A stretch of DNA of 64,000 bases from Candidatus Saccharimonadia bacterium. GTDB lineage: Bacteria; Patescibacteriota; SICC01. The DNA lies in NCBI GenBank assembly GCA_025449535.1, contig JANWJF010000001.1:303344-367343 (forward strand), in the 5' to 3' direction. Both the position numbers and the translations under genes were made by a program. This document shows positions 3,001 to 64,000 of the stretch, one piece after another. The notes beneath the pieces are model-generated. The model made no database searches. It was not told the DNA's origin and saw only the letters and a program-made list of their open reading frames with translations. Position 1 is the first letter of the stretch. Each line of letters opens with the position of its first letter.

Positions 3001-3909
3001 GTCGTTACGGTTCAACTGGCTCGTGTCTCCGGTTGCACTGCCGGGATTGTGGTGACTGTGCGGAGTATCACCGCTCCCGTGCTCATGACTCCGGCTATCG
3101 TTCTGCCTCACCACCCAAACGTGATCCGCCTCATGGACATGTGATTTATTGCTGTCCCGGCGCACGTTAAAGCATGGATCACTCCCCCCATACCGCCCAT
3201 CACAACTATCCTGTGCGGAGCCATCAAGCGTAATGCGGTTGGTTATTGCGCTACTGGGACCACCTGGTGCGTTAATTTCAAAGGTCCGCCAACAGGGGCC
3301 GTTGGCGCCATTCGAGTACTTGCACCCGTCGTTCGAATTCGGCTGGTTGTCGGTCGTCGGGAATATGTTACGGTCGCGCGGGTTGATGACGCCAAGCAAT
3401 CGGCCATCGCGCGGTCCGCCATTGGATAGCTGATACACCTCGTAGTACACCGGCGAGAGGAATCCGTGCTTCTTGGAAAGGTCGACTATCCCATCCACAT
3501 TCGCCTGGTCGCGGTCGTATCGATCCTGGCCTCCTGAATTATCCTCCGACCAATGCCCGCCACGCAGTTCAAACTTCACATTGGGCGTGGTCGAGCTGAC
3601 GAAGTACTGGTTTGGCATATAGGCCGCGGCCGTTCCGGCCGAGCCGGTCGGTCGATGCACAACTTGGCTCAAGCGCGCGCCGTCGGGAGAAGATCCACCG
3701 GGCGCTGATTGAGGCAATTGGTCCACCGGCGGGTGGATGACGTAATTATTGCGTTGGATCGTGTCACGAAAGTCGCCACCGCCCGTCCCCCACCACTGGT
3801 CACCCATGGCCAACGCGGTAGGTATCATCACGCCCAACACGAGAACGGCAACTGTGAGCAGTCGCCATCGCATGCGAAGTTTTCGTACCTGTAGTAGTTT
3901 TTGTTTCAT
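1..3909 (-). CDS. Very large secreted protein, C-terminus beyond the window edge (at least 1300 aa). N-terminal signal peptide, Asn/Gly-rich, with His-rich patches and repeated Cys/Trp modules (GGNCFWxW...HRVFC).
   Basis: Manual translation of the minus strand from ATG at 3907-3909 (MKQKLLQVRKLRMRWRLLTVAVLVLGVMIPTALA...) found no stop down to position 1. The frame fits the window edge. It is absent from the ORF track only because it lacks an in-window stop. High GC3 in most of the gene. Confidence 0.6.
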   Translation of the reverse strand, partial: MKQKLLQVRKLRMRWRLLTVAVLVLGVMIPTALAMGDQWWGTGGGDFRDTIQRNNYVIHPPVDQLPQSAPGGSSPDGARLSQVVHRPTGSAGTAAAYMPNQYFVSSTTPNVKFELRGGHWSEDNSGGQDRYDRDQANVDGIVDLSKKHGFLSPVYYEVYQLSNGGPRDGRLLGVINPRDRNIFPTTDNQPNSNDGCKYSNGANGPCWRTFEINAPGGPSSAITNRITLDGSAQDSCDGRYGGSDPCFNVRRDSNKSHVHEADHVWVVRQNDSRSHEHGSGDTPHSHHNPGSATGDTSQLNRNDNAHDQFNTHPSNHQSGGNCFWEWNSPNTLAGDDAGNWHSHRVFCAQFENNVPVDYGDPHSHPDGSGITDASPFQQFPGFYLLNPNKLLFYNRSPGNYEDGGNCFWGWDSHGDVPGSHTNKEHEHRVFCYDRTRGDSGTMSSANFSQVDSNARFLSSYYPNLNGNYVFLIKAVVFEDRFNGYVTHVNDIQRSGSWNNGCLTAAAFNTLRCPEIILRYAQSRNLSGPLVQNGYFLRTPKDLAGGKEFLASAPASIAFNISYGPVGGVANEPGQDHEYEEMAGQSYRGLRFQAGGAGCRNDDWSHRGPTGPTTGGGALFKAGNADWDDGPKGGFEGSPPGGDQNISAQVERVGTLNENNTLNTSGYNAPDGITRQVASGSISGTWQTYPGWAIFLDDPAGSGSPYNPLWRANEQLSGRLNIHHWNDGNNLAQGGAPFTWGYWPTCLATSDFSVTAHTPKAHASKYRYNGRENFNQMNNAGDAIIDFAFQYTLPETRGLVKHYVKVNQSSTGAEVARVDQSNTSVEPGTHQVRVPIQANSFSANTDYSWQACVNPGPVEKCTTAIKFRVNKGPVATIVSADPDNPTNTGNVNYNCSKLAIVLKDPENNQVRPYFAISWTKDGQTNVVTSFNRSGLNSDSWGGWLKNLGTFGYGSGNNRTYTSDDVRPVSWTVNGSSRSVPNKTLTQFLQEDVPEGADVTWTASGEDRFGASELPALPDLFRSRSTPQATVDSGYPIPISSQPTLNYRRFGPPVGATFHKNSRPNLLPPGSTKKFKDLNGAVVDSVTDGQTVQVETTLRNTGETPTKRYQIYDYLGSVRDFEPIQDNPQFPITVQYNNGTERRVQPTVSRVIPNRSNGFNDTPESLVSNGDDRQASYKLDFGTNPDQLNNVSVTKDGSDFNSCQFGSGANAYCLTNYAPYPNSVSFFCGGAGNLPGACGGTNNAPAVWSYQLDGVQPGLYDLTLGYYNRPNPDPNGTPPPGYDSYRVRVDYPGGSRTVDLPVESD

Positions 3910-3934
3910 CGGCAGGAACGTGGGAAATTAGGAA

Positions 3935-3963
3935 ACTATACCATCTATCTGCCTTAGTGTCAA
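3935..3963 (-). promoter_or_regulatory. Sigma70-like promoter for the giant secreted protein gene: TTGACA, 17-nt spacer, TATAGT.
   Basis: On the minus strand, TTGACA (3963-3958) and TATAGT (3940-3935) are separated by exactly 17 nt. This places a TSS about 18 nt upstream of the ATG at 3909. Confidence 0.45.
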
Positions 3964-4122
3964 TCTACCTGAATTTCGGCAAAACAAAAACCGCCGCGAC
4001 TCTGGACATCACCTCCTTTCAGGAGAGTAGACGATAAAGAGTGTACTATGCGTCGGTTCTTGCCAGTCGAAGCCCCGTAAATAGGACTGCAACTTAGATT
4101 GACGACCAAGCGGAACGCTTGA

Positions 4123-4923
4123 TCATGCGCGTTTCTTGACTACCCGGTTTGCACCATTCTTTCCCACGACCCACGGGATCTCGATGGCTCGCATGCGTCC
4201 TTGTATGGGGTCGTAATAGGGAACGGACTGTTGGACGCCCATCGACAGCCCGCACCATTTGTACTCGCGGCATAGCCGCTGGACGGCTTTCCGGTTAATA
4301 ACGAGCCGGATGACGTGATGGTTGCCAGCTGGCAATGCAGGCAACTCGACAACCTTTCGCTTTTTCTTGGGGTTGCCGACGAGCCTGCCGCCTTCGCGAG
4401 CACCCAGGGTGAGGTCGAACTCATTCTTGATCGTGGTCCGGCCTTCATAACTGACGATCGCCACGAATTGCTTCTTCGTCCTCACGATCCTGGTCTGGAG
4501 ATTATTCACTGAGCCAAGAGTCGACAGCGGGAAACTGAGGCGACCGACCTCATCCTGTGTAGTGGGACCAGACGCTATGGCCACCATGGTGAATGTGTAG
4601 TCTTCATCGGTTGGCCCTAGATCAGCCACCCAGCGACTCATGCCTCCTGGCGGCCCCTGTTCGACAGGGGTAACGCTTCGGATGACGAGAGACGGACCGG
4701 TAAACCCACCGTATTCCGCCACGGGTTCCGTGAGGTCAAAATATTGCGCCTCCGACACAACCCTGAATTCGAGTGACTTCGGCAGTGTTGTCGGCTGGCT
4801 GACGTCCGTCACCAGACAGATCTTGCCGTCTTCCGAGCACTGTTCGGCCTGGGCCGTACCTGCGAGCGCGATGCTGAGGACGAGCCCCAGCAGCGCGATG
4901 GTCTTGAATCGCTTGCTGCTCAT
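4123..4923 (-). CDS. Secreted hypothetical protein (266 aa) with a signal peptide (MSSKRFKTIALLGLVLSIALAGTAQA).
   Basis: ORF 4123..4986 trimmed to the ATG at 4923, which is preceded by a strong SD (AAAGGAGG). Classical signal peptide. Confidence 0.6.
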   Translation of the reverse strand: MSSKRFKTIALLGLVLSIALAGTAQAEQCSEDGKICLVTDVSQPTTLPKSLEFRVVSEAQYFDLTEPVAEYGGFTGPSLVIRSVTPVEQGPPGGMSRWVADLGPTDEDYTFTMVAIASGPTTQDEVGRLSFPLSTLGSVNNLQTRIVRTKKQFVAIVSYEGRTTIKNEFDLTLGAREGGRLVGNPKKKRKVVELPALPAGNHHVIRLVINRKAVQRLCREYKWCGLSMGVQQSVPYYDPIQGRMRAIEIPWVVGKNGANRVVKKRA

Positions 4924-5203
4924 TTGAGGCCTCCTTTCATCACGAAAGCAGACGGTAGTGCCTGTTTCCTTAGCCTCCTCACACACCCGAACACTCGGGG
5001 TCGCGAGGAGGCCAAGGATATCGCGTGCCTGTTTGTGAAACTGCGGGAACGGGGATTCAGTATATAAAAATCCCGGCCTGTTTTCGCCGGGATATCCCCT
5101 GTCCTCGTTGTAGCCGCACCATATCGCTACTTTTTACCTTTGTCAAGGTGTTTTTAGTCAAAATAGGAACGGTTTTCCACGTATGCGTTGCTAGAATAAC
5201 CCT

Positions 5204-5449
5204 ATGGCCGACGTCGCCAAGCTCATCCTCGCCCTGCATACGGACGTGACCCGCGGCTTCCGGTCGATGAACGTCCGGCTCGACGGGCATGACGACCGGC
5301 TGGATCGCATCGAGGCCAAGCTCGAGCAGCATGACCGGCGGTTCGTGGCTATCGACGACCGGTTCGATCGGGTGGACGAGCGATTCGACGGGATCGATCG
5401 GGAGCTCGAACAAATCAGGCGACGGCTTGGCGTATTAGAAACGACCTGA
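5204..5449 (+). CDS. Small coiled-coil protein (81 aa) with tandem DxRFDRxDERFDGIDRELE-type repeats.
   Basis: High GC3 typical of coding in this genome and balanced composition. Convergent with the FMN reductase gene. No clear SD. Confidence 0.4.
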   Translation: MADVAKLILALHTDVTRGFRSMNVRLDGHDDRLDRIEAKLEQHDRRFVAIDDRFDRVDERFDGIDRELEQIRRRLGVLETT

Positions 5450-10241: not shown

Positions 10242-10665
10242 GACGCCACACAGCATCGTCGGCGGCGCGGTCGGGGCGGCCGTCGGCAATCCGGCCGGCG
10301 CCTTCGCGGCCGGGGTCGGCTCGCACTTCCTTGGGGACATGCTGCCGCACTGGAACCCGAACTTCCCGTTCAAATCCAAGGCGCTGTACGCCTTCGTGAT
10401 CGCCGACTTCGTGGTCGCGGAAGCGTTGGTCGTGCTGCTCTGGTTCCTGTTCCCCGACCGCCCGGAGGTCGCGATCGGCGCGTTCGCCGGGACGCTGCCG
10501 GACGTCCTGCTCGGCATCCGGTTCACCTTCAAGGTGCAACGGCTCCGCGCGTACGAGCGGTTCCACAGCCTGGTCCATTGGGAGGTGCCTATCCGCTACG
10601 GCCTCTGGCCGCAGTTAGCGGTTTCTGTACTGGGCTCGTGGTACCTACTCCAGCAGGTACAGTAA
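10234..10665 (+). CDS. Membrane-bound metal-dependent hydrolase, YdjM/DUF457-like.
   Basis: Overlaps the pgeF stop (ATGCTTGA). Hydrophobic protein with the HFLGDMLPHW motif. Confidence 0.5.
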   Translation: MLETPHSIVGGAVGAAVGNPAGAFAAGVGSHFLGDMLPHWNPNFPFKSKALYAFVIADFVVAEALVVLLWFLFPDRPEVAIGAFAGTLPDVLLGIRFTFKVQRLRAYERFHSLVHWEVPIRYGLWPQLAVSVLGSWYLLQQVQ

Positions 10666-10671
10666 AGTCAG

Positions 10672-11250
10672 ATGGCCTACCTCACGTTCCAATATTCCAG
10701 CGTCTACAACCGCTTTATCAAGCAGCGCAGCGACAACCCCGATGCGTATCCTGACCAAGCTACACTGACGAACTACCTCGGCGATGTCGAGAAGCTTTGG
10801 AGGCAGCGCGGTGAAAAAGTGCTGACGATTATCGAAACCCGACTCGGTATTCCTTGGGATAACAAAGAGCACGTCTGTTACGTAATGGGTCTGAAGCGGA
10901 GTTTCTCCAATCCTTTGTCGCTTGGATTCCTTCCCAACACTGAACGGGCATTCGATGTCCTGACCCACGAGATGATCCACCGGTACTTCATTCAGCGGGA
11001 TAGGAAGCTAGTCAAAACGGACGGCTTCCAGCAGTTGATGCAGCAATATGCAGACGAGCCGCTGCCGACCAAGAATCACGTTCCGGTCCACGCCCTACAC
11101 CAGCACGTGTACGAAAAGCTCGACCGTCAAAAAGAAATGCAGGAAGAAATTGCCAACTTAATCCGCGACGAATACAAACGTTCTTGGTACATCGTCCAGG
11201 AAGTCGGCGCGGAAAAGATTCTCGATAGGATTGCGGCCCGGCCTAGATGA
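10672..11250 (+). CDS. Hypothetical protein with an HExxH motif (LTHEMIHRY), a possible small zinc metallopeptidase. Moderately lower GC than its neighbours.
   Basis: HEMIH motif and ORF integrity. Lies 7 nt after the upstream gene. Confidence 0.5.
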   Translation: MAYLTFQYSSVYNRFIKQRSDNPDAYPDQATLTNYLGDVEKLWRQRGEKVLTIIETRLGIPWDNKEHVCYVMGLKRSFSNPLSLGFLPNTERAFDVLTHEMIHRYFIQRDRKLVKTDGFQQLMQQYADEPLPTKNHVPVHALHQHVYEKLDRQKEMQEEIANLIRDEYKRSWYIVQEVGAEKILDRIAARPR

Positions 11251-16093: not shown

Positions 16094-16741
16094 TTACTCC
16101 ATTAGACCAAGGGCCGTAGCATCCCGCAGGACCCGGTTCCGGACATTGCTGTCGCCGGACTTCTGAGCCCGACTTAGACATCGTTCCCGGATCGCGGAAT
16201 GCTTGGACCGCAAACCTTCCCGCAGGATCCGGCCGATCCGTTGCTCGCTGTCAAACGTCCGGGCGATATTCAATGCGAGGTTGGCTACTCCCTCGTTCTC
16301 GTTCCGGATACCGGCGCCCACCACCATACTTTGGTTGACGTCCCGCTTAATGTCGTCCACAGCGACCAGGGCCGCATGGGCGACGTACGTATCCGGGGAG
16401 CCGGCGGCGACCATCAAACCATCGCTGCGGTCATTCTCGCCTTCCACCTTGAGCAGGTGTCCGATCGCTTCCCGTCGGAGATCGGGATCTTCCGATGTCC
16501 GGATGACGTGAGTGAACACGTTCGCCCGGTGCTTGTCCAGCTCGAAGAACCGCGCCAGCTGCATACCCTCGCGCGTCGCGTCGCCGCCCTGCTCCACCAA
16601 CTGCCGCGCCATCGGCAGCAGGACCTTGCCCTCCTGCTCGGCACTCCACTTCCCGCCGTCCACGATGTCCTTAAAGAGTAATCGTTCTGCGTATACGAAT
16701 GCCTCGGTGCGAAGCGGGTGGTCGCCTAGTGGTTCGCTCAT
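16094..16741 (-). CDS. HEAT/PBS-lyase-like repeat protein.
   Basis: Repeated alpha-helical pairs of about 30 residues with conserved R/A/G positions, typical of HEAT-like repeats. Confidence 0.55.
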   Translation of the reverse strand: MSEPLGDHPLRTEAFVYAERLLFKDIVDGGKWSAEQEGKVLLPMARQLVEQGGDATREGMQLARFFELDKHRANVFTHVIRTSEDPDLRREAIGHLLKVEGENDRSDGLMVAAGSPDTYVAHAALVAVDDIKRDVNQSMVVGAGIRNENEGVANLALNIARTFDSEQRIGRILREGLRSKHSAIRERCLSRAQKSGDSNVRNRVLRDATALGLME

Positions 16742-16800
16742 AGCGCTGTATTGTCTCGGTCAAACCAGTGAGTGTCAACGAAAAAGAGCGAGGGGCGCGG

Positions 16801-17019
16801 TTACAGACCCTTAAACAGTTCCTCGGCCCTAATTCCCAATCCCTTACATATCGAGTAGACCGTGTTAAGGCTTGGCTTTGCGTTTCCCTGCTCTATGGCC
16901 GCGACATGTTTTTCCGCGAGTCCCGCCAAGTCCGCCAGACGAGCTTGTGTATACCCCTTCTCTTTGCGGTATGTAGCAATTCTTAGCGCAACCTCACTAA
17001 AGAAGTTCCCTCGGTCCAT
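16801..17019 (-). CDS. XRE-family (Cro/CI-type) HTH transcriptional regulator, 72 aa. Low-GC gene with atypical codons.
   Basis: Canonical HTH_3 (YRKEKGYTQARLADLAGLAEKHVAAIEQGNAKPSLNTVYSICKGLGIRAEELF). AGA/AGG/ATA codons are rare elsewhere in the window. Confidence 0.8.
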   Translation of the reverse strand: MDRGNFFSEVALRIATYRKEKGYTQARLADLAGLAEKHVAAIEQGNAKPSLNTVYSICKGLGIRAEELFKGL

Positions 17020-17054
17020 GCCCTAAGGGTAGGCAGATAGGTTGCCAGCTATGC

Positions 17055-17066
17055 TGTAATATTACA
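17055..17066. promoter_or_regulatory. Perfect 12-bp palindrome TGTAATATTACA in the divergent promoter region between the XRE gene and the small secreted-protein gene. Candidate operator.
   Basis: Seen directly. It sits between divergent start codons (17019 and 17108), the usual position of an XRE/Cro operator. Confidence 0.45.
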
Positions 17067-17107
17067 TACTTCCATCAAGAACTATTAATCAACTATAAGG
17101 AGGCTAC

Positions 17108-17485
17108 ATGGGCGAGGAAGTTAAAAAGAATTGGTTCGCGCGCCATAAAGTGCTGACTGGTATCGTCGGGGTAATACTGTTGTTGGGAATCGGTAGCGCA
17201 ATGAGTTCTACTGGGTCGGTAAGTACCGATACAGCAGATCAAAATCAGGGAGCAACACAAGAAGCACCAGTGAAGAAAGAGTCAAAAAAGCTCAGCTCTC
17301 AGGAAATTTATGAAAAAGTTCAGCCAGGCATGACCAAGGAAGAGGTTATCAAAATCGCCGGTCACGATCCGGACAACTGCATTAACTCTGACAGTGGTAC
17401 GTTTGGCTCCTCGGAAACCTGCTCATATGGGACCTTGTCTCTAATTTTCATGAATGGCGAATTAGAGAGTAAGACAAAGCTCTAA
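17108..17485 (+). CDS. Small membrane-anchored/secreted protein with a BamE/SmpA-OmlA-like (DUF3862-type) C-terminal domain. Low GC (about 43%).
   Basis: Strong SD AAGGAGG 5 nt upstream of the ATG. N-terminal TM/signal (VLTGIVGVILLLGIGSA). Motif GMTKEEVIKIAGHDPDNC. Confidence 0.7.
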   Translation: MGEEVKKNWFARHKVLTGIVGVILLLGIGSAMSSTGSVSTDTADQNQGATQEAPVKKESKKLSSQEIYEKVQPGMTKEEVIKIAGHDPDNCINSDSGTFGSSETCSYGTLSLIFMNGELESKTKL

Positions 17486-17497
17486 CTCTCTTTTAAG

Positions 17498-17547
17498 CAA
17501 GCTGCTAATATACAAAGGTGCAGCTTGGTAAGGTTGGTTTTTGTTTT
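17498..17547 (+). terminator. Stem-loop (CAAGCTGC ... GCAGCTTG) followed by a T-rich run between the convergent 17108..17485 (+) and 17546..18733 (-) genes.
   Basis: 8-bp stem with a 14-nt loop, then GTAAGGTTGGTTTTTGTTTT. Weaker than the other terminators here. Confidence 0.35.
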
Positions 17548-18733
17548 ACGACTCCGGCGTCGCGGTCGGGCTCGGGGACGGGGTCGGCGACGGGGTCGCG
17601 TTCTCGCCAGGGATCGGTGCGAACGGATCGCGGCGGCTGGTGGTGGCGGGCTTCAGCGGCGCACCGTACCGGTCGCGTGAAAGGATGCTCCGCCGTTCGT
17701 CGGCACTGAGGTCGATCGCCGGCGGGTTGTAGCCGGCGCCTTCCACGTCCGCCTGGGCCTTCTGGTTGAAGTACCAGAGCGTCCCGTAGGTCGACGTGAC
17801 GACGAGGACGGTCACGCCGGTCACCATCAGCGAGACCACGTGGCGCGAGGCGAACATCCGCGGAGTCAGCCGATTGTACTGCTTGAAGAAGTACAGCACC
17901 GCCCCCGGGATGAACAGGAACGTGACGACCAGCCGCCACTGGGTCTGTTCGACGGCCGTCGGATAGTCGCGGCGATAGCTGTCACGTAGCATCCGGACCC
18001 AGAAGGCCGTCGCGGCGAACGCCAGCACGGCCAGTGCGGCCACGACCGTCAGCTTCAGCGGAGAGAACGAGAGCACCATATCCCAGGCCTGCGCCGGCAG
18101 GCCGGCCAACGACCCGAGGTCCATGCCGCCCGCCTGTCGCAGGCCGAAGTGTTCTCCGGATACCACGGTGGCGCCGGCGACCAGCAGAACGCCTGCTCCC
18201 AGCAACGCCAGAAGTTCCCGATGCGCCTTATGGTCCGGGGTCATCGTGATCGAATCAAGCGCCTGCCGCTTCGCCCGCCTGGCGACGCGTTTGCGAACCG
18301 GCGTGGCAGCCCAGAGCGCGATCCGGCCGAGGAAGGACCAGGCGCCGAGCGCCCAGTAGGCAACGAGGGCCTCGACGGCCCGTCCGGACCGACCAGGTGT
18401 GCAGAAGACCGTGCCAGCCACCGAAGCGACCTCGGAGGCGATCTGCTTCAGTAGACCTTCTCCTGCCCGCGCGGTGCGCCGGGCAGGCTCGGCGACGGCG
18501 CGTTCCGCCGCGACCGCCTTGCGCGCGACGTCTCGCTCCACGGATGCGACCGCCCGGGTCGCCTTCCGTTCGTCCCGCCGGATCTGTCGAACTACGCGCG
18601 CGAACGCGCGCTCGGCGGCTTCGACGAACCCGACGACGCCGGCGTCCGCCTTGGCGACCAGCGCCTCCACGGAACGGTCGAACCGACGGAGTGTCCGTTT
18701 GGATGCCCTGCCGATCTGTGCGAACGGTCTCAT
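17546..18733 (-). CDS. Polytopic membrane protein (395 aa) immediately downstream of pilO. It has N-terminal amphipathic Arg/Ala repeats and a C-terminal Pro/Thr/Ser tail.
   Basis: Start is 2 nt after the pilO stop, so it is probably co-transcribed. Several predicted TM helices. No recognisable domain. Confidence 0.5.
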   Translation of the reverse strand: MRPFAQIGRASKRTLRRFDRSVEALVAKADAGVVGFVEAAERAFARVVRQIRRDERKATRAVASVERDVARKAVAAERAVAEPARRTARAGEGLLKQIASEVASVAGTVFCTPGRSGRAVEALVAYWALGAWSFLGRIALWAATPVRKRVARRAKRQALDSITMTPDHKAHRELLALLGAGVLLVAGATVVSGEHFGLRQAGGMDLGSLAGLPAQAWDMVLSFSPLKLTVVAALAVLAFAATAFWVRMLRDSYRRDYPTAVEQTQWRLVVTFLFIPGAVLYFFKQYNRLTPRMFASRHVVSLMVTGVTVLVVTSTYGTLWYFNQKAQADVEGAGYNPPAIDLSADERRSILSRDRYGAPLKPATTSRRDPFAPIPGENATPSPTPSPSPTATPES

Positions 18734-48838: not shown

Positions 48839-49471
48839 CTAGGGCCGCTTCGACTGCTTCTTGAAGTCTATCGCCTCGGTCTCGGCGTTCACGTAGATCT
48901 CCAACCGGGCCTTGGTGCCATCCCCGGCGTCGTACTGGAAGAACCACTGCAAGGGGTGGGCGCCGACCTTGGAAAGCTGCTGGAGCAACGTATAGCCGGC
49001 CAGGTGCTGCTCGCGGAAGGCCTCGCCGCCGGCTTCCTCGGCGAGCCGCAACGCATCGTCCGGCGCCACCTTCCACTGGGCCACGTTAATCGGGTTGAAG
49101 AGCAGCTCGAACGGCTGCTTCTTCGTCGTGCGTTCGCTGACGTCGTCGCCCTGATAGACCACCTCGAATGTCGACTTGGGATCGGCCAGGGAAGAGAACG
49201 CGTACATCAGCGGCGTCGGTGAGGACGGCGCCAGGGTTCCCGAGAATTTCCGGTGGACACGGACCAGTTCCGCGTTGCTCTGCCAGCGCTTGGCGCGTTC
49301 CAGCGACTCGGTGTAGCGTTCCTTCGATTGCTCGATCGGGCTTGGCGTCTTGGTCGCGATCACGTCCGGGGACGGCTTGTCATCCGGCTGCTTGCCGCAA
49401 CCGGCGATGCCGAGTGCCGCCGCCGCCGCGACGGTGATTCCGGTGATGCGCGCTGCCTCCCTTATCCGCAT
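48839..49471 (-). CDS. Lipoprotein (signal peptide with lipobox LGIAGC), hypothetical.
   Basis: MRIREAARITGITVAAAAALGIAGCGK is a type II signal. Confidence 0.6.
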   Translation of the reverse strand: MRIREAARITGITVAAAAALGIAGCGKQPDDKPSPDVIATKTPSPIEQSKERYTESLERAKRWQSNAELVRVHRKFSGTLAPSSPTPLMYAFSSLADPKSTFEVVYQGDDVSERTTKKQPFELLFNPINVAQWKVAPDDALRLAEEAGGEAFREQHLAGYTLLQQLSKVGAHPLQWFFQYDAGDGTKARLEIYVNAETEAIDFKKQSKRP

Positions 49472-49527: not shown

Positions 49528-51534
49528 TTACTTCTGCTCTTCCTTGCCGTCCGCCTCGGACGTGTCATCCTCGGGCTTCGCGTCGTCCGAGCCGGACTGG
49601 TCGTCGGAAGCGTCGGCGTCGGAACCATCGGACGCGCCTTCTGATCCATCGTCCGTGCTCTGGTCGGCCGAGGTCGTATGGTCCACGCCGTCTCCGGAGG
49701 ACTCTTCCGTCTGTCCCTGCTCAGTGCCACCACTCTGCTGGTAGATCGCTGCGCCAACCTTCTGGATCGACTCGGACAGCTCGTTCGTCTTCGTCTTGAT
49801 CGCCTCGACGTCCTCGCCGTCCATTACCTCGCGAAGCGCTTTGATCTTCTCGTCGACCTCGTTCTTATCGGTCTCCGAGACCTTGGCGCCGGCGTCCTTG
49901 ACCGTCTTCTCGCTGGAATACACGAGATTGTCGGCCGCGTTCCGGGCTTCGATCAGTTCCGCCTTCTTGGCGTCGTCGGACTCGTGCTCCTGCGCCTCCT
50001 TGCGCATGTTCTCGACCTCCGTGTCGGAAAGGCCGCTGGAGCCCTGGATCGTGATCTTCTGCTCCTTGCCGGTGCCCTTGTCCTTGGCAGAGACGTTCAG
50101 GATGCCGTTGGCATCGATGTCGAAGGTGACCTCGATCTGCGGCACGCCGCGCGGGGCCGGCGGGATTCCGTCCAGTACGAACCGTCCGAGCGACTTGTTG
50201 TCCCCGGACATCTTGCGTTCGCCCTGGAGGACGTGGACGTCCACCGAGTTCTGGTTGTCGGCCGCTGTCGAGAAGACTTGGCTCTTGCTGGTCGGGACGG
50301 TGGTGTTCCGTTCGATCAGCGGCGTGGACACGCCGCCGAGCGTCTCAATTCCGAGCGTCAGCGGGGTTACGTCCAGAAGCAGCAGGTCCTTCACGTCGCC
50401 GGAGAGGACGCCGCCCTGGATGGCCGCGCCGAGCGCGACCGCCTCGTCGGGATTCACGTTCTGGTTCGGCTCCTTGCCAAAAATCTCCTTCACCGCCGCG
50501 TGGACCGCCGGCATCCGGGTCATGCCGCCGACCAGGATCACCTCGTCGATGTCGCTGGTCTTGAGACTCGCGTCCTCGAGCGCCTTCTTGCAGGGCTCCT
50601 GGGTCCGCTTCACGAGGTCCGCGGTGAGCTGCTCGAGCTTCGCCCGGGTCAGCGTCAGGTTGAGGTGCTTGGGACCGGAGTCGTCCGCGGTGATAAACGG
50701 GATGTTGATCTCGGATTCGCCGGTGGTGGAGAGCTCGATCTTCGCCTTCTCCGCGGCTTCCTTGAGCCGCTGCAGGGCCTGCCGGTCCTGCGACAGGTCC
50801 ACTCCCTGGTCCTTCTTGAACTCCGCCACCAGGTGGTCGATGATCGCCTGGTCGAAGTCGTCGCCGCCGAGGTGGGTGTCGCCGTTAGTCGACTTCACCT
50901 CGAAGACCCCGTCGCCGAGCTCCAGGATGGTGATGTCGAAGGTCCCGCCGCCGAGGTCGAACACGGCGATCTTCTCTTCCTTCTTCTTATCGAGTCCGTA
51001 GGCCAGCGAGCTCGCCGTCGGCTCGTTGATGATCCGCTTCACGTTCAGTCCGGCGATCTTGCCGGCGTCCTTGGTGGCGTTCCGCTGCGAGTCGTTGAAG
51101 TACGCCGGAACGGTCACCACCGCGTCGGTGACCTTCTCTCCGAGGTACGCTTCGGCGTCCGTCTTGATCTTCTGCAGGATCATCGCGGAGATCTCCTGCG
51201 GCGAGTAGGACTTCTCGCCCATCTTCACCTTCACGTCGCCGTTGGACGCCTCCTCCAGCTTGTACGGAAGCAGCTTCGCCTCCTTCTGGACGATCGGGTC
51301 CTTGAACTTCCGGCCCATCAGCCGCTTCACGGAGAATATCGTGTTCTCCGGGTTGGTGACCTGCTGCCGCCGGGCGACCTGCCCGACCAGCCGTTCCTTG
51401 TTCTTCCCGAGCGCGACGACGGACGGGGTCAGCCGGCCGCCTTCCTTGTTCGGGATGATCTTCGACTCGCCGCCCTCAAGCACGGCCGCCGCCGAGTTGG
51501 TGGTACCGAGGTCGATACCGATGATTTTAGTCAT
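49528..51534 (-). CDS. dnaK: Chaperone DnaK (Hsp70) with an acidic Asp/Ser/Glu-rich C-terminal tail.
   Basis: [41 protein letters not shown]. The SD AAAGGAG lies within the 3' end of the upstream small gene. Confidence 0.95.
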
Positions 51535-51535
51535 A

Positions 51536-51871
51536 TTAACTAGCTCCTTTCTCTAATGGTGCCATGACTCCGAATTCTCTCATGGCCTCAATAATACGAA
51601 TCTTTTGTAATTCCAAACCCTTTCCTGTTCTTTCGGCCTGTTTTAAAGCCGGAATAATTTCTTGAAGACTTCTTGTGAACCTGCCTCCGCCCATTACTTC
51701 ATTCAGGGTAGGGTCACCTCCGGAGTGAGCAGCTTGGCCTACCATTTCTTGGAAGTGTTCTGACCAACTCTGGCCTTTCTCCTTGATTCTTTCTTCAACC
51801 GCTTCTAACAGGGAAGCCACAGCCCGGGCTTCTAGCAGAGCTTCTTCTGATCTTTCACTATCTTCGCTCAT
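51536..51871 (-). CDS. Small protein (111 aa) of unknown function, encoded by a low-GC (about 48%), atypical-codon segment between grpE and dnaK.
   Basis: Overlaps the grpE 3' end by 14 nt and ends 1 nt before the dnaK ATG. AGA/TTA/AAA/ATA codons contrast with the flanking 65% GC genes. Confidence 0.55.
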
Positions 51872-52490
51872 TTTCCTTCTTTCCGCTTGATACTTGCACC
51901 TTCGCCGGGCGGACGACCTTGTCGCCCATCCTGTACCCGGCCGCGAACTCCTTGCTCACGACGTCCTTGTCGTACTCGTCGCTCGGCTCGTGGCCGAGCG
52001 CCTCATGGAGTTCGGGGTCGAACGGCTGCCCGACGGCTTCGACCCGTTCGATCCCGAGTTCCGTGAGAATGTCCGCGAACTGCTTCCGGATGCCTTCGAT
52101 GCCCGCGTACCATTGGTCTCCCTTGATCGCCTCCGGCACATGTTCCGCCGCCCGGTCGAAGTTGTCGATCACCGGCAGCAACTGCACGGCAAGATCGCCG
52201 TGGGCATCCTGGACCATCTGCAGGCGTTCCTTCTCCATCCGCTTCTTGAAGTTCGTGAAGTCGGCCTGGAGCCGCGCCATCTGCCCGCGCAGATCCTCCG
52301 CTTCGGGAGACGGACCGGCGTATCCGGCGGCTTGGTTGGCCTGGTCGGCCGTTTTCCCGGTCCGCTTGTCCGAGTCCTTGGCCGGATCGCGCTCGAGGCG
52401 TTGGCCCTTCTTCTTGATCGTGACCTTCGGACCCTTGGGCTGGTTCTGATCCCCCGGCTCGGAGGCCGGGCGGTGCTTATCCGTAGACAC
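51858..52490 (-). CDS. grpE: Nucleotide exchange factor GrpE with a basic N-terminal extension.
   Basis: RLQADFTNFKKRMEKE, LLPVIDNFDRA, C-terminal beta domain. 14-nt overlap with hrcA. Confidence 0.9.
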   Translation of the reverse strand: MSTDKHRPASEPGDQNQPKGPKVTIKKKGQRLERDPAKDSDKRTGKTADQANQAAGYAGPSPEAEDLRGQMARLQADFTNFKKRMEKERLQMVQDAHGDLAVQLLPVIDNFDRAAEHVPEAIKGDQWYAGIEGIRKQFADILTELGIERVEAVGQPFDPELHEALGHEPSDEYDKDVVSKEFAAGYRMGDKVVRPAKVQVSSGKKENERR

Positions 52491-53204: not shown

Positions 53205-53231
53205 TTAGCACTCTGTCAATGAGAGTGCTAA
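53205..53231. promoter_or_regulatory. CIRCE operator (TTAGCACTC-N9-GAGTGCTAA), a perfect match to the consensus, upstream of hrcA-grpE-dnaK.
   Basis: Seen directly: ttagcactc tgtcaatga gagtgctaa. Confidence 0.9.
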
Positions 53232-53321: not shown

Positions 53322-53570
53322 ATGCCGCATCGTACCGTATTTCAGTGGGGAAAGAACCACGCCCATCCGTTCACGACGTTCCTGGGTGGATTCATCGTCG
53401 GAGGACTGGTGGTAGGCGCCGTCGTCTACGCCTGGCAACTGGCCGACGAGACCAGCGACGTCGAGATCGAAAGCACCGTCGTCGAGCCGGTGGTTGACGA
53501 GACGGCCGCTCCGGAAGCGTCCGTCGAGCCGTCGCCGCAGGCCACGGCCGCTGCGGACGTCCAGTTCTGA
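53322..53570 (+). CDS. Small membrane protein (82 aa) with an acidic C-terminal tail.
   Basis: Strong SD AAAGGAGGAG 5 nt upstream of the ATG. One TM helix (FLGGFIVGGLVVGAVVYAW). Confidence 0.65.
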   Translation: MPHRTVFQWGKNHAHPFTTFLGGFIVGGLVVGAVVYAWQLADETSDVEIESTVVEPVVDETAAPEASVEPSPQATAAADVQF

Positions 53571-55416: not shown

Positions 55417-55484
55417 AGCTATCAGTATACTGGTTCCCCGCTCCGCGACGGTCCCAAACTCGCTTATACTTGGGACGAAAACAA

Positions 55485-55967
55485 ATGATCACAACGGATA
55501 ATCGGGGTTATACGCTGATCGAGGTCCTTACGGTCGTAGCGATCATCGGGATCGTTACCGTAGTCGCTTTCAGCCTGGCCGGCGGTGATAAGACCGCGCG
55601 GTTCGGGCAGGACTTCGACGAACTGGCAGCCAATCTTCGTGACCTCCAAGCGAATGCCCGGGCAGCCAAGGACAATCGCGAGTACGGGATGTGCCTACGG
55701 TCCGACGGTTGGTCATCGTTCGCGGTCCAGAGCGATACGACGGCCGATCCCTGCGCGACCGGATATCCAGAGCAGATTAAACCGGTGAACTTCGAAGTCG
55801 CGTCGATGAGCGCGGCCGTGAGTCCATCCACCGACCGGGTCGTATTCGAACGCGTCACTGGTCGGACCAAGGACGGCAGCACCGCCACGCTTACGCTCAC
55901 GCTCGACAATCCGGCCCGGACCCGTACGTTAAGGATCGAAACCAACGGAGCGATCCATGAGCAGTAG
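55485..55967 (+). CDS. Type IV (pseudo)pilin with an N-terminal prepilin cleavage/methylation motif (leader MITTDNRG, mature start YTLIEVL).
   Basis: Gly(-1) and Glu(+5) rule satisfied, hydrophobic N-terminal helix. Start trimmed to the ATG at 55485. Confidence 0.7.
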   Translation: MITTDNRGYTLIEVLTVVAIIGIVTVVAFSLAGGDKTARFGQDFDELAANLRDLQANARAAKDNREYGMCLRSDGWSSFAVQSDTTADPCATGYPEQIKPVNFEVASMSAAVSPSTDRVVFERVTGRTKDGSTATLTLTLDNPARTRTLRIETNGAIHEQ

Positions 55968-56466
55968 GGTCGCGCAGCGTGGATTTACCTTGCTCGAGGC
56001 GGTGGTCGCGATCACCGTCTTCACGATCGGAGTGGTGGGAATGGTCCAGATCGTCCTGGTGGCCCGATCGACCTCCGACCAGGGATCGGACCTCGTAATG
56101 GTCAGTGGCTACCTGAAGGAAGGCATTGATGCCGTCCGGATCATCCGGGACGACGATTGGGAAGCTATCGCTGTCGACGGTTCATACCGTCTTTCGGCCC
56201 AGCCCGGCACCACGCCACCCTGGACCTTGCGGAACGGCAGCGAGACGATCGGCAAGTTCACCCGTCGCGTCGGCATCGCATCGGTCCGGCGTAGCGATAC
56301 CGACGGCAACGGAACCTTGTCCGCGGGCGATCTCATCTGCCAGGGGACGAACTGCGGCAGCTTTGAAGACCCTGAGACCAAGAAGGTCGCTGTCACGGTG
56401 ACTTGGCAGCAGGGCTCCCAGCAGAAATCGCGAAACGTATTCGGTTACCTCACCAACTGGCAATGA
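55957..56466 (+). CDS. Type IV minor pilin (prepilin-type N-terminal domain: QRG|FTLLEAVVAITVF).
   Basis: Leader, cleavage motif, Glu+5, C-terminal beta-rich region with a Cys pair. Confidence 0.7.
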   Translation: MSSRVAQRGFTLLEAVVAITVFTIGVVGMVQIVLVARSTSDQGSDLVMVSGYLKEGIDAVRIIRDDDWEAIAVDGSYRLSAQPGTTPPWTLRNGSETIGKFTRRVGIASVRRSDTDGNGTLSAGDLICQGTNCGSFEDPETKKVAVTVTWQQGSQQKSRNVFGYLTNWQ

Positions 56467-56957
56467 AACGCCATCTCCAATCCGGCCTTACTCTGGTCGA
56501 ACTGCTGGTCGCGATCTCGATCCTGACGCTACTGATCCTGGCAGCCGGAACGCTTTATGTGACCGTGATCCGGCAACAGGTCGGTGACCGGCTCGTCCAG
56601 AACCTGCAACGCGAGGTCGATCGGATGACTGCCCATGTCGAACGGAACGTCGCCACGAGCACGGAGGTTTCTGGTAGTACGACCTGCAATCTGCAGGCGA
56701 CCGACCGGATCGATCTCGACTCGCCGGACGGTATGCTCAGTTACCAGCGGAACGGCAGCCGACTGGAATTCAGCAAGGCGGGATCCATCGAAGAGGTCTC
56801 CTCGCCAGGTATAGCGGTAAGCGGGGTACGCTTCTTCCCGACCTGTGATGGTACGAGGTTGGTATCGGTCAAGTTCGAGGCGACCTTGACGAAGTCAGCG
56901 GGCGGCCAGACCAAAACGACTAGCATATCCACTACGACCGGGACGAGGCCGCAATGA
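56463..56957 (+). CDS. Type IV minor pilin (QSG|LTLVELLVAISIL).
   Basis: Start trimmed to the ATG at 56463, which overlaps the previous stop (ATGA). Prepilin motif present. Confidence 0.7.
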   Translation: MKRHLQSGLTLVELLVAISILTLLILAAGTLYVTVIRQQVGDRLVQNLQREVDRMTAHVERNVATSTEVSGSTTCNLQATDRIDLDSPDGMLSYQRNGSRLEFSKAGSIEEVSSPGIAVSGVRFFPTCDGTRLVSVKFEATLTKSAGGQTKTTSISTTTGTRPQ

Positions 56958-58771
56958 CGCAGCATCTCAGAGGACAGTCCGGCGTCATAGGCATCTTGGC
57001 CGTGCTGATCTTCTCGGCGCTGATCGTGGTCATCGGCAGCGCCATGGTGGCAACCTCCGTGCTGACGTTCCAGCAAAGCCAGGAGCGGATCGATTCGACC
57101 CAGAGCATCGTGGATGCCGAGAGCGGCGTGGAAGACGGGTTGCTCCAAGTCAGGCGGAATCCGAACTTCGGAGCAAACGACGCCACGGTGAGTATGTCCT
57201 TCGATACCCGGAATCGCACCGAATATACTATCAGCACGGTCGACACCCAATCGTGTCAGGACGCCCGGCGGGTCACCGCCTCCGGATTCCTGGACACGCT
57301 GGTTCGGCGAGTCCAGGTGGATAACTGCCCCCAGCCGTCCGTCGATGCCGACTTCGTATACGCCCTGCAAGCCGGGAGCGGCGGCATCGACATGTCCAAC
57401 AATTCCCGGATTATCGGCAGTACGTACTCGAACGGCAACCATACCGGCGGCAACGGGGCTAGCGTGACGGGAGACGTGTGGGTGGCGGGTGCGGCAGCTC
57501 CGAACCCCACGCCTCAGTACGACCCCGCGACGGTGACCGACTTCCTCTTCGGGTCATCCACGAACCCGAACGCCATTGACGTAGCGCAGTCATTCGCTGC
57601 CGATACCACGCAAAGCAATAAGTTGGTCAAAGTGGCACTCAAGGTGAAGAAGATCGGCAACCCGGCGAACGCGACGGTCCGGATCGTTACCGATAACAGC
57701 AATCAACCCTCCGCGACCCAGGTCGCCAGCGGAACTTTGAACGCCTCTTCCGTCGGGTCTGCACTGCAATTCATTGACGTGAGCTTAAGCACGCCGCCGA
57801 CCCTGGCCAACGGTCAGAAATATTGGATCGTCGTAGACGCGTCTTCTTCCGGATCGAACTATTGGTCCTGGGGCATCGCGGACGACAATGGGTACCCTGG
57901 TGGCAGCGGCAAGAACTCCGACCGCTGGCGGAGCAGCGGGGCAATGAGCTGGTATCCCGTCGGCAAGGATTTCGCTTTCAAGGCTTTCATGGGGAGCCCG
58001 CCGACGTACGCCCAAAGCCTTACGGTCGGTGGTGACGTCCATGCCAACACCATCACCAGCCTCAGCGTTGCCAAGGATGCCTACTTCCAGACGAATAATG
58101 GATCCACCGTCGCAGGCAGCAACTTTCCCGGCAGCCAGGACCCACCCCAGCGCGATCTGCCGATCACCGATGCAAACATCAATGACTTCAAGACACAAGG
58201 GACTTCCGGAGGCACACAGACAGGAGACGTGACGGTCCCACTTGGCAGCACTGCCACGATGGGACCACTGAAAATCAACGGCGACCTGGTCGTCGAGAAT
58301 AATGCGACCCTGCGGATTACCGGCACGCTTTACGTGACCGGCACGATGCTGTTCTCGAACAACGCCAAGATCATCCTGGACCCTGGATACGGTTCAGACA
58401 GCGGAGTCATCGTAAGCGACGGTGCCATCACCATTTCTAACAACGTGACTTTCACGGGTAGCGGATCGGCAAACAGCTTCCTGCTGCTGGGCACTACCAG
58501 CACGTCGGACGCTGCGATCGATGTCTCTAACAACGCCACCAATATCATCCTGGCAGCTCCGAACGGGACGATCCGCCTGCATAACAACGCTGGAGCCAAC
58601 GCCCTGACCGCCAACCGCCTGATGCTTGATAACAACGCGGTAGTGACCTACGTCTCCGGCCTGGCCGATATCCACTTCACCAACGGACCGGGCGGCAGCT
58701 TCGCCGCGAACGGCTGGCGCGAGATCGTCTGCGACACCGACAGCGGACCGTGCACACCAGTCGTCGAGTAA
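56954..58771 (+). CDS. Large pilus-associated protein (605 aa, PilX/PilY1-like role). N-terminal pilin-like TM helix and a C-terminal beta-helix-like array of Asn-rich repeats.
   Basis: N-terminus MTQHLRGQSGVIGILAVLIFSALIVVIGSAMVA. C-terminal repeats (NNATLRITGTLYVTGTMLFSNNAKIILDP...NNVTFTGSG...NNATNIILAAPNGTIRLHNNAGAN). Last gene of the minor-pilin operon. Confidence 0.6.
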   Translation: MTQHLRGQSGVIGILAVLIFSALIVVIGSAMVATSVLTFQQSQERIDSTQSIVDAESGVEDGLLQVRRNPNFGANDATVSMSFDTRNRTEYTISTVDTQSCQDARRVTASGFLDTLVRRVQVDNCPQPSVDADFVYALQAGSGGIDMSNNSRIIGSTYSNGNHTGGNGASVTGDVWVAGAAAPNPTPQYDPATVTDFLFGSSTNPNAIDVAQSFAADTTQSNKLVKVALKVKKIGNPANATVRIVTDNSNQPSATQVASGTLNASSVGSALQFIDVSLSTPPTLANGQKYWIVVDASSSGSNYWSWGIADDNGYPGGSGKNSDRWRSSGAMSWYPVGKDFAFKAFMGSPPTYAQSLTVGGDVHANTITSLSVAKDAYFQTNNGSTVAGSNFPGSQDPPQRDLPITDANINDFKTQGTSGGTQTGDVTVPLGSTATMGPLKINGDLVVENNATLRITGTLYVTGTMLFSNNAKIILDPGYGSDSGVIVSDGAITISNNVTFTGSGSANSFLLLGTTSTSDAAIDVSNNATNIILAAPNGTIRLHNNAGANALTANRLMLDNNAVVTYVSGLADIHFTNGPGGSFAANGWREIVCDTDSGPCTPVVE

Positions 58772-62140: not shown

Positions 62141-62986
62141 TCAGAGTAAACTTTCTTGGTTAGTAGTATCTTGTTTTGCCAGCTCGACCGGTGCGGTCGG
62201 CTTGGCGTCCTGGTTCAACATCTTGCGCACTTTCAGCTTGAAGACCGGTTCGATCTCCGGACTTTCTTCCGGCAACTCCCCGATCTTCTCAAGCAACTTC
62301 GGGATTTGCTTGAAGTCGTCGAGCAACGTGTCCTTCAGCGAGCCCGTGTAGAGCGCGGCGGCGGGATGGTACACCGGAAGGTAGGCTTGGCCGCGGAACC
62401 GCTTCGCCCGGCCGTGGTCGGCCGAGATCTTGAGGTCGGGCAGGAACCAGTCCATCGCGTGGCGGCCCAACAGCACGATCAGCTTCGGCCGGATGGCCGT
62501 AATCTGGTCGCGCAGCCAGGGCCAGGAGTGCTCGATCTCCTCCGGCTTGGGATCGCGGTTCCCCGGCGGCCGGCCCTTCAGGACGTTGGCAATGAACACG
62601 TCGTCCCGCTTCATGCCGATCGAGGCGATCAGCTCGTCGAGCAGTTTTCCCGCCGCGCCGACGAACGGCCGGCCCTGCAGGTCTTCGTTCTTGCCCGGCG
62701 CCTCGCCGATGAACAGCACGTCCGCGTTCGGGTTGCCTTCGCCCGGTACCATGTTCGTGGCCTTTTCACACGGCTCGAACCCGCACCCCTTGTGGGCGCG
62801 GATTTCGTCCGCGATCTGGTCGATTGTCTTCAACTGCTTCTGTTCCGCCCCGCACGACGGACCAGCAACATATCCTCCTACTTGAGGAGGGCGTTGTCGG
62901 TTGCCGTAGCTGATGGCGTCGGAGTCTTCCTGGAGAAGGACCCCGTCGCCGCGAGGCTGTGAGCGAGCGCGGTGCTTGGAAACCAA
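62141..62986 (-). CDS. Uracil-DNA glycosylase, family 4 (4Fe-4S type), with N- and C-terminal extensions.
   Basis: GEAPGKNEDLQGRPFVGAAGKLLDELI and a Cys cluster (CGAEQ...CGFEPC). Ends 1 nt before the rnj start. Confidence 0.8.
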   Translation of the reverse strand: MVSKHRARSQPRGDGVLLQEDSDAISYGNRQRPPQVGGYVAGPSCGAEQKQLKTIDQIADEIRAHKGCGFEPCEKATNMVPGEGNPNADVLFIGEAPGKNEDLQGRPFVGAAGKLLDELIASIGMKRDDVFIANVLKGRPPGNRDPKPEEIEHSWPWLRDQITAIRPKLIVLLGRHAMDWFLPDLKISADHGRAKRFRGQAYLPVYHPAAALYTGSLKDTLLDDFKQIPKLLEKIGELPEESPEIEPVFKLKVRKMLNQDAKPTAPVELAKQDTTNQESLL

Positions 62987-63180
62987 GTGACGGCGCTCCT
63001 GTTAAGTGATGCCATGGTACCCCATCAGGCCTTTCGTGTCAATGAAGGAGTTTATCCGAATAGAACATTTTTCCGCTAACCCCATGCAAGAAGGAAGCCA
63101 GATGACTTCCCGTAATCGTCATACGTTTGACAACCGGAGTAGAAGCCCATATTAAGTAAGCAGCCGGAACATCTCAAAAA

Positions 63181-64000
63181 ATGAAAAACGCCATCGAACG
63201 AATACGCACGATACGCTTTCCCTTCCGGGCGTCGATTGCCGCTGTCATCGCGATAGGCATTACTGCCGCAATCGTGACATTTGCCGCCCCGGGGCAATAT
63301 CAGAACAAGTACCCCAACATCATTTACGTGATCACGGATGACCAGACGTTCGAGTCGCTCAACAAGATGAAGTTCCTCACCCAACAACCGGATTGGATCA
63401 AGTTCAGCAGGGCGTATGCGAACACCCCAATCTGTTGTCCCGCCCGCGCTACGCTGTTGTCCGGTCAGTATTCCCACCACACGGGGGTAGAAACCAACAA
63501 GGAAGGCTGGAAGTTCAACGACCGATCGACCGTCGCCACTTGGCTCAAGGTCGTCGGGTACCGGACGGGCTTCGTCGGCAAGTACTTGAACGAATACCCG
63601 TGGAGCGAGCCGGGTACTTTCGTACCGCAAAGCGCGGTAAGGCCGGCCAACTACCGCCCACCGGGGTGGAATACATGGGTCGCGTTTTCCGGACCGCCCG
63701 GCTACTTGAACTACACGCTCAATATAAATGGCACACTGGTCAATAAGGGTGGCGAGGAGGCGGACTACTCCACCGATGTCCTGACTGACCAAGCGGCCCG
63801 GTTCATCTACGACAACAGCCGCGGACCGGCTCGCGAGCAACATCTGTTCCTGGTGTATGCCCCGTACGCGCCGCATACTCCGTCCACGCCGGCCGAACGT
63901 CATAGCGGTCTGTTTAAAGGCCTGAGCATTCCGCACGCTCCGAACTACAACGAGACGGACATTAGTGATAAGCCGAAGTGGTTACAGGAAAACCACGCGC
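63181..64000 (+). CDS. Sulfatase (formylglycine-dependent arylsulfatase family), 5' part only. The gene continues past the window edge.
   Basis: Manual translation from the ATG at 63181 found no stop to 64000. Signal peptide/TM, YVITDDQ, CCPARATLLSG (C-x-P-x-R FGly motif). Absent from the ORF track for lack of an in-window stop. Confidence 0.7.
   Translation, partial: MKNAIERIRTIRFPFRASIAAVIAIGITAAIVTFAAPGQYQNKYPNIIYVITDDQTFESLNKMKFLTQQPDWIKFSRAYANTPICCPARATLLSGQYSHHTGVETNKEGWKFNDRSTVATWLKVVGYRTGFVGKYLNEYPWSEPGTFVPQSAVRPANYRPPGWNTWVAFSGPPGYLNYTLNINGTLVNKGGEEADYSTDVLTDQAARFIYDNSRGPAREQHLFLVYAPYAPHTPSTPAERHSGLFKGLSIPHAPNYNETDISDKPKWLQENHA

Follow-up and report, generated by a model that had tools for sequence, protein, structure and literature searches.

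A clade-restricted, AT-rich small gene between grpE and dnaK in the heat-shock operon of a Candidatus Saccharimonadia bacterium

Few gene arrangements of bacteria are as conserved as the hrcA-grpE-dnaK operon, and Patescibacteria of the kind considered here have drastically reduced proteostasis networks. In a stretch of 64,000 nucleotides (nt) from a Candidatus Saccharimonadia bacterium (assembly GCA_025449535.1, contig JANWJF010000001.1, positions 303,344 to 367,343; hereafter the window) this operon contains an additional open reading frame (ORF) of 111 codons between grpE and dnaK, which we call gene X. A first-pass annotation made from the sequence alone had described it as a recently acquired gene, perhaps a novel co-chaperone or modulator or a selfish insertion. 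Comparison with related loci, identified below by L numbers, leads us to favour a different view: gene X is probably an old, clade-restricted, rapidly evolving and dispensable gene of an hrcA-grpE-X-dnaK operon, possibly encoding a modulator of the DafA/CbpM kind.

The grpE-dnaK junction

The layout of the locus was read directly from the letters of the window and its ORF list, and the identities of the neighbouring genes were taken from Pfam. On the minus strand the gene order is hrcA, grpE, gene X and dnaK, with the following features (aa, amino acids; GC3, GC content at third codon positions):

53205..53231, no strand assigned: operator of the CIRCE type (controlling inverted repeat of chaperone expression), TTAGCACTCTGTCAATGAGAGTGCTAA, 23 nt upstream of the hrcA start codon
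52477..53181, minus strand: hrcA, 234 aa, first gene of the operon; HrcA domain (PF01628, E 1.6e-11) and a weak match to the HrcA DNA-binding domain; 14-nt overlap with grpE
51858..52490, minus strand: grpE, 210 aa (PF01025, E 5e-42); its last five codons and stop codon overlap gene X
51872..51885, minus strand: purine-rich Shine-Dalgarno-like tract GGAAAGAAGGAAA, just 5' of the gene X ATG and within the grpE tail
51536..51871, minus strand: gene X, 111 aa, ATG start, orphan with a pI of 5.0, predicted to be all-helical; GC 0.46, GC3 0.38
51544..51550, minus strand: dnaK Shine-Dalgarno sequence AAAGGAG, inside the last codons of gene X and 9 nt before the dnaK ATG
49528..51534, minus strand: dnaK, 668 aa (PF00012, E 3e-269), beginning 1 nt past the gene X stop codon

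Most of what the first-pass annotation had said about this arrangement was borne out. The frame of gene X is intact and overlaps grpE by 14 nt; the 3' codons of grpE, described as AT-rich, read GAA AAT GAG CGA AGA TAG. The TAA stop codon of gene X (51536-51538) is separated by the single base 51535 from the dnaK ATG (51532-51534), and the AAAGGAG motif indeed lies in the last codons of X. All four genes overlap or abut on one strand, and a simple consensus scan of the coding strand from hrcA to dnaK detected no promoter-like or terminator-like site. GGAG-like or GGGAG-like tracts likewise precede the start codons of the gene X orthologues described below, and placement of the dnaK ribosome-binding site in the tail of the upstream gene is an arrangement common to all relatives.

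The assignment of the locus to a CIRCE/HrcA-controlled heat-shock operon also holds. Pfam identified HrcA, GrpE and Hsp70, and a perfect CIRCE element (TTAGCACTC-N9-GAGTGCTAA) is located at 53205-53231, which is 5' of the presumed transcription unit that includes gene X. This element is the sole match in the window, and none of 100 shuffled versions of the window yielded one.

Homologues at the same position in related genomes

A word-indexed protein search with gene X retrieved the identical protein only, from a metagenome-assembled genome labelled "Patescibacteria group bacterium" (GCA_036560925.1) and from a JGI metagenome; the contigs concerned are identical to the window over 10.3 kb. Further relatives were found by searching with GrpE and reading the contigs of its closest relatives, and one more (L034) by the phmmer search described below; ten distinct related hrcA-grpE-dnaK loci were compared with the window. 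At six of them a homologous ORF of 87-120 aa occupies the exact slot between grpE and dnaK (GrpE identities refer to the protein of the window):

L020: X of 113 aa (4618-4959, not annotated by the depositor); GrpE 81% identical
L032: X of 109 aa; GrpE 80% identical
L023: X of 111 aa; GrpE 76% identical
L033: X of 120 aa; GrpE 68% identical
L035/L036: X of 102 aa; GrpE 63% identical, the most distant relative
L034: X of 87 aa (protein P0123), on an 849-bp contig reading grpE-X-dnaK

Over full-length proteins, GrpE of the six X-bearing lineages is 63-81% identical to that of the window. In all seven lineages, the window included, X abuts or overlaps both grpE and dnaK, with either overlaps or gaps of 1-24 nt. 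The protein P0123 was recovered in an exhaustive phmmer search of 1.84 billion representatives (E 7.5e-7, 37% identity); the other matches of that search (P0122 and P0124-P0127), all of them long repeat proteins, were regarded as spurious. The X orthologue of L036 (4699-5007) is not annotated, although the DNA is identical to that of L035, where it is. Gene callers probably skipped the intact X genes of L020 and L036 through their atypical codon composition, and because such orthologues were missed the family is under-counted in protein databases.

Outside this slot no X homologue was detected among 5.8 billion clustered proteins and 1.84 billion representatives (single-sequence phmmer and word-indexed profile search). 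A three-member X alignment had no match in metagenome or viral contigs (JGI metagenome contigs, IMG/VR), a search of JGI metagenome contigs with a DNA pattern for the 3' end of grpE was likewise negative, and a scan of genome contigs with GrpE returned distant phyla only. A literature search revealed no described small ORF between grpE and dnaK. Gene X therefore has the features of a taxonomically restricted gene: a frame that is open in seven diverged lineages, a ratio of nonsynonymous to synonymous substitution rates (dN/dS) below 1, and, within the sensitivity of these searches, no homologues beyond a narrow clade. It represents a small, undescribed orphan family whose members are annotated as "hypothetical protein" only.

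The distribution of X was compared with a neighbour-joining tree of LepA, HrcA, GrpE and DnaK, rooted on L035 as the most distant locus. Clade A, which is defined by the matrix of HrcA+GrpE identities, comprises the window, L020, L021, L023, L032 and L033, plus L034 as judged by the C-terminal domain of its GrpE; L025, L028, L030 and L037 form its sister, clade B. Identities are 83-93% within clade A and 72-76% between clade A and clade B, and bootstrap support is 100% for clade B and for the pair of L021 and L023. Of the seven clade A loci six possess gene X, as does L035; the exception is L021, which lacks it though it is the sister of the X-bearing L023. At 4590-4625 of L021 grpE runs directly into dnaK, and the GrpE tail, SSGKHKEESQ, resembles the tails (KEESYE, KEEAHD) of the X proteins referred to below as type II. 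This suggests that an in-frame deletion may have fused grpE to the end of X with the dnaK ribosome-binding site being kept. Clade B is devoid of X; its GrpE proteins end in SSGKEKSHE, with an 8-nt overlap into dnaK as in type II X genes. Four relatives couple grpE to dnaK with no spacer. At 4576-4668 of L028 there is an 82-nt grpE-dnaK spacer with a 30-codon ORF (MRTLELWHRGKSLFGDSIDKDYQRKETNHE) that is ATGA-coupled to the grpE stop and the dnaK start. This short ORF may have been left behind by a deletion within gene X, or it may be a proto-gene. Parsimony favours a common ancestor that possessed X and two or three later losses; a history with two acquisitions by transfer is also conceivable.

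Other parts of the locus are peculiar as well. HrcA is unusually short, with 234 aa in the window and in L020, L021, L023, L025, L028, L030, L032 and L033, and 219-242 aa in L035/L036 and L037. Residues 90-217 of the window protein match positions 93-213 of the 215-position Pfam model of the HrcA C-terminal domain, and about 90 model positions are missing; the truncated HrcA is nevertheless located behind a perfect CIRCE element. That X might supply the missing part of HrcA was considered and rejected, because lineages devoid of X have the same 234-aa HrcA (242 aa in L037) and X has no match to the HrcA profile. In every relative a protein of about 210 aa (orf210) that matches no Pfam domain and begins like a lipoprotein (...LGIAGCGKQ) is encoded approximately 55-110 nt after dnaK (window 48839-49471, minus strand; L023 6981-7622; L025 6717-7346; L028 6695-7324; L035 7095-7721). 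It is 52-78% identical among relatives, its GC3 is 0.87, and in L028 and L035 dnaJ comes next. The orf210 gene is a possible second clade-specific component of the operon. Divergent from hrcA in all relatives lies an 82-aa ORF (orf82; 53322-53570, plus strand) that has no Pfam match and is 56-83% identical. The 140-nt intergenic region between hrcA and this ORF contains two plus-strand matches to sigma-70-like promoters, one of which overlaps the CIRCE element.

Protein sequence, selection and codon composition

The seven X proteins are 16-52% identical in pairwise comparisons. They share an EAVEE-like helix and two invariant residues, a tryptophan (Trp36) that comes after this helix and opens helix 2, and a leucine (Leu69); all of them are acidic (pI 4.2-5.0). 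Two types of C-terminal motif are recognisable. Type I is a 17-residue motif of the window protein that is matched in L034 and in L035 (KLKDAEETGEGLHLQKV); type II reads LGELTQV..DLAWRETDE in L020 and L032 and occurs in weaker form in L033 and L023. AlphaFold models of the type I protein of the window (pLDDT 78, pTM 0.67, five helices) and of the type II protein of L032 (pLDDT 85, pTM 0.78) have the same four-to-five-helix layout. This predicted fold is a generic helical bundle with no specific fold match. The window protein matched no Pfam or NCBIfam family at E <= 1 and had no match in PHROGs or PADLOC either; nor was any Pfam or NCBIfam family common to the seven members.

The probability that the frame is open by chance is about 0.001 for the window X (mononucleotide shuffles) and 0.0002-0.035 per lineage. 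Selection was measured on L020 versus L032, the one pair that is close enough. For X a dN of 0.40 and a dN/dS of 0.25 were obtained, compared with dN/dS values of 0.09 for grpE, 0.06 for hrcA and 0.07 for dnaK; its dN is 3.4-15 times that of these three genes. Based on the open frames, the dN/dS of 0.25 and the high dN, X is a real protein under purifying selection which evolves much faster than its neighbours, and the selection acting on it is much weaker than that on the genes around it.

Three further identities of gene X were considered and dismissed. A duplicate of a neighbouring gene, including a nucleotide-exchange factor of the GrpE type, is incompatible with hhalign probabilities of <=0.2% against GrpE, DnaK and HrcA. 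In J domains (PF00226) a conserved HPD motif separates helices II and III; X lacks a PF00226 match and no conservation is seen in its loop motifs, HSGGDP and HGPD, so that it does not qualify as a J-domain co-chaperone. An RNA element or RNA thermometer was rejected on the basis of a fold z-score of 0.02 and the absence of an Rfam match at E <= 1.

The contrast in base composition that had drawn attention to the segment was confirmed. Its GC content is 0.46 (initially put at about 48%), and its GC3 of 0.38 compares with 0.83-0.90 in the flanking genes (grpE, GC 0.64 and GC3 0.83-0.84; dnaK, GC 0.63 and GC3 0.90). The mean GC of the window is 0.625, and the GC3 of 61 gene proxies averages 0.79 (standard deviation 0.09). 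Measurement of GC and codon usage, the check proposed in the first-pass annotation, thus identified gene X as a compositional outlier confined to a single gene. The list of foreign-looking codons stood in part. Codons AGA (45 per 1000 versus 1.5 elsewhere in the window), TTA (36 versus 2.0) and AAA (27 versus 6.7) are 4- to 30-fold enriched; by contrast, the listed ATA does not occur at all, isoleucine being encoded by ATT. Adenine, and purines in general, are abundant on the coding strand, and the A content at third codon positions is 0.41. In composition and codons alike gene X is atypical for its host, a property by which recent horizontal transfer is tested.

The same anomaly is found in the relatives. 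GC3 of X is 0.36-0.54 in six of the seven lineages, L032 alone being host-like at 0.72, and flanking grpE and dnaK have GC3 values of 0.66-0.93 in every genome compared. Since synonymous divergence between lineages is saturated, the low GC3 is a stationary property of X and not that of an un-ameliorated import. Neighbouring pilin-like genes, which served as a control, are 44-64% identical between relatives yet have a GC3 of 0.72-0.77, and the clade-specific orf82 and orf210 have GC3 values of 0.78-0.87. Because these genes keep a host-like GC3, fast evolution alone is insufficient to explain the low GC3 of X. Three candidate causes come into consideration: rare codons may be selected for because they limit the amount of X made from a strongly expressed transcript, X may have been replaced time and again by members of an AT-rich pool that is not among the sampled sequences, or GC-biased gene conversion may be absent locally.

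The window contains other stretches and genes of note in this respect. The pilin-like genes belong to a type IV pilin-like cluster (N_methyl/GspH motifs; window 55470-57000, plus strand; L001 1-1387) that adjoins lepA and is syntenic in relatives; they evolve fast (44-76% identity) and have a GC3 of 0.72-0.77. The lowest-GC stretch of the window is 16727-17630 (minimum 0.42), where a 72-aa ORF judged by eye to be helix-turn-helix-like (16801-17019, minus strand) and a divergent 125-aa ORF with a hydrophobic N-terminal segment (17108-17485, plus strand) may form a truly accessory or foreign two-gene module. Five other low-GC stretches (2212-3034, 3690-4247, 4885-5235, 10611-11235 and 62894-63448) have minima of 0.47-0.51. 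Most of these stretches lack an ORF that is clearly coding by its signature; 10611-11235 overlaps a 192-aa ORF with a GC3 of 0.66. Neither an Rfam family nor a tRNA was found in the five stretches.

Origin and possible role of gene X

Horizontally acquired genomic islets display a sharp break in GC content and codon usage, and in gene X such a break is confined to one gene. Together with the 20- to 30-fold enrichment of codons such as AGA and TTA over the rest of the window, and with a first word-indexed search that gave no homologue, this would fit a recent horizontal acquisition or a selfish insertion at the grpE-dnaK junction of this particular genome, the low GC reflecting un-ameliorated import. 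We regard that explanation as highly improbable. Unlike an islet, X resides at an orthologous site in deep relatives: its homologues occupy the same slot in six other lineages with GrpE identities of 63-81%, the most distant one included, and the low GC persists even though synonymous sites between lineages are saturated. The first-pass annotation had itself held that relatives carrying the same low-GC gene would speak for an ancestral, constrained gene; five of the six same-slot orthologues are AT-rich (GC3 0.36-0.54), and for this reason the reading as a recent insertion fails. Selfish mobility finds no better footing, as there are no mobility genes, target-site duplications, terminal or other flanking repeats (short chance repeats only), donor-like homologues or nearby tRNA, and no relatives in phages, plasmids, viral contigs (PHROGs, GenBank phages and plasmids, IMG/VR) or any other genomic context. 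An older slot with a changing occupant accommodates more of the data, and we still consider it unlikely. AT-rich small genes from unsampled mobile elements or low-GC relatives would replace one another by recombination that makes use of the conserved sequences at the 3' end of grpE and the 5' end of dnaK; the grpE tail and the first 40 nt of dnaK are highly conserved and could act as recombination arms. In keeping with such turnover, X is 20-34% identical in close relatives, whereas the X of distant L035 is 30% identical to that of the window and has the same C-terminal motif; the GC3 of 0.36-0.54 falls below the rough intergenic GC despite saturated synonymous divergence; and presence or absence of X varies among relatives. 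However, every detectable member is found in this one slot and one clade (5.8 billion clusters, 1.84 billion representatives, IMG/VR, JGI metagenome contigs, GenBank phages and plasmids), the X of L032 has a host-like GC3 of 0.72, and rate variation on a poorly resolved, star-like tree explains the identity pattern equally well.

Two other alternatives concern what X does rather than where it came from. It is doubtful that X is a co-expressed heat-shock passenger with a job unrelated to DnaK and GrpE, for example a small acidic binder of another target. Its lack of likeness to any co-chaperone family, its generic helical-bundle fold and its dispensability in several lineages that keep identical hrcA-grpE-dnaK genes would be in line with this. 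By contrast, no data suggest an alternative target, and the tight two-sided coupling is conserved in all seven lineages, down to a GrpE identity of 63%, which argues for a stoichiometric or functional link of X to its neighbours. Quite improbable, in our judgement, is that translation of an AT-rich spacer or an AU-rich RNA matters rather than the protein, with the segment adjusting the ratio of DnaK to GrpE as a coupling device or as a platform for RNase processing. One would then understand why X is sandwiched between its neighbours with overlaps or gaps of 1-24 nt and carries the dnaK ribosome-binding site, why its coding strand is A-rich and purine-rich (0.41 A at third positions), why its protein sequence diverges so fast, and why L028 keeps a 30-codon coupled mini-ORF only. 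Selection at the protein level (dN/dS of about 0.25), the invariant tryptophan and leucine and the motifs kept across lineages down to a GrpE identity of 63%, the confident and concordant AlphaFold models of two divergent members, and a length conserved at about 100-120 codons all speak against it. Moreover, the RNA is not structured beyond expectation (z = 0.02) and matches no Rfam family, and four relatives join grpE to dnaK without any spacer.

Several observations weigh against an old, vertically inherited gene with a role in the chaperone system. X is only 20-34% identical among close relatives whose HrcA+GrpE identity is 85-87% (20-26% where it is 87%), and its GC3 is below even the rough intergenic GC of 0.57; this extreme divergence and composition fit recurrent replacement from an unseen pool more easily than simple vertical descent. 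Internal branching of clade A is poorly supported (bootstraps 13-46%), so that the two X sequence types cannot be cleanly mapped onto the tree, and the ancestral presence of X depends on rooting with a single most distant locus (L035). Having been lost repeatedly, X is dispensable. Finally, no physical or homology-based link to the chaperones has come to light: no Pfam, NCBIfam, PHROGs or PADLOC family was found for it, a PDB sequence profile search gave noise (best E 0.045), and hhalign finds no likeness to GrpE, DnaK or HrcA. Taking both sides into account, we consider it very likely that X is an ancestral, vertically kept, protein-coding gene. That it is a chaperone modulator is a possibility which we put forward tentatively, its function being judged from genomic context only.

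Because the operon is so conserved, an additional lineage-specific gene that is coupled to both grpE and dnaK readily suggests itself as a candidate accessory of the DnaK cycle. Given the CIRCE-controlled promoter and the translational coupling, heat shock would be expected to raise X along with GrpE and DnaK. The rare codons of X (AGA, TTA and others ending in A) would probably keep it sub-stoichiometric, and its most likely part in the DnaK/GrpE cycle would be that of a modulator or accessory which is specific to the lineage and dispensable. DafA (DnaK-DnaJ assembly factor A) of Thermus thermophilus and its functional analogue CbpM of E. coli are precedents for small operon-encoded DnaK/DnaJ modulators, which either assemble with DnaK/DnaJ or restrain them; they are roughly 8-11 kDa in size, lineage-restricted, encoded in or next to a DnaK-system operon and made with the chaperones (PMC3727329, PMC3125180). 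DafA and CbpM partner with DnaJ and CbpA, and the two genes have adjacent locus numbers in D. vulgaris (PMC3727329, PMC3125180). Gene X, which encodes a small protein of 111 aa within a DnaK-system operon, resembles these factors in size class, in the logic of its operon and in being confined to a narrow range of taxa. It differs from them in having no sequence or profile similarity, with no family match for the seven members, and in its position between grpE and dnaK, dnaJ being located elsewhere.

Like orphan genes of the Candidate Phyla Radiation, X is small, fast-evolving, patchily distributed, free of homologues beyond a narrow clade and annotated as a hypothetical protein. Orphan genes are usually located in variable regions; X, by contrast, is translationally coupled inside one of the most conserved bacterial operons, and its codon composition is unlike that of every neighbour across deep divergence. 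Rare codons are a known way to hold a low-copy protein low within a shared transcript, as is reportedly the case for the rare-codon gene dnaG within the E. coli rpsU-dnaG-rpoD operon, a proposal said to go back to Konigsberg and Godson in 1983. With its genome-rare codons between two codon-optimised neighbours gene X resembles that arrangement, and the analogy holds for composition only. It is tempting to speculate that X is the first of an undescribed class of Hsp70-system regulators whose AT-rich rare codons were selected to throttle its synthesis between codon-optimised chaperone genes, a bolder version of our proposal that we think is rather unlikely to be correct.

The practical impact of these findings is modest, as the family is tiny, dispensable in several relatives and confined to uncultured organisms. 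Their broader meaning lies in the X locus as a vertically kept gene that stays compositionally foreign through saturating divergence; an anomaly in GC content or codon usage should therefore not be taken as evidence of recent transfer. If true, a codon-level throttle of X would represent a deeply conserved dosage control inside the dnaK operon of an ultra-small Patescibacteria lineage.

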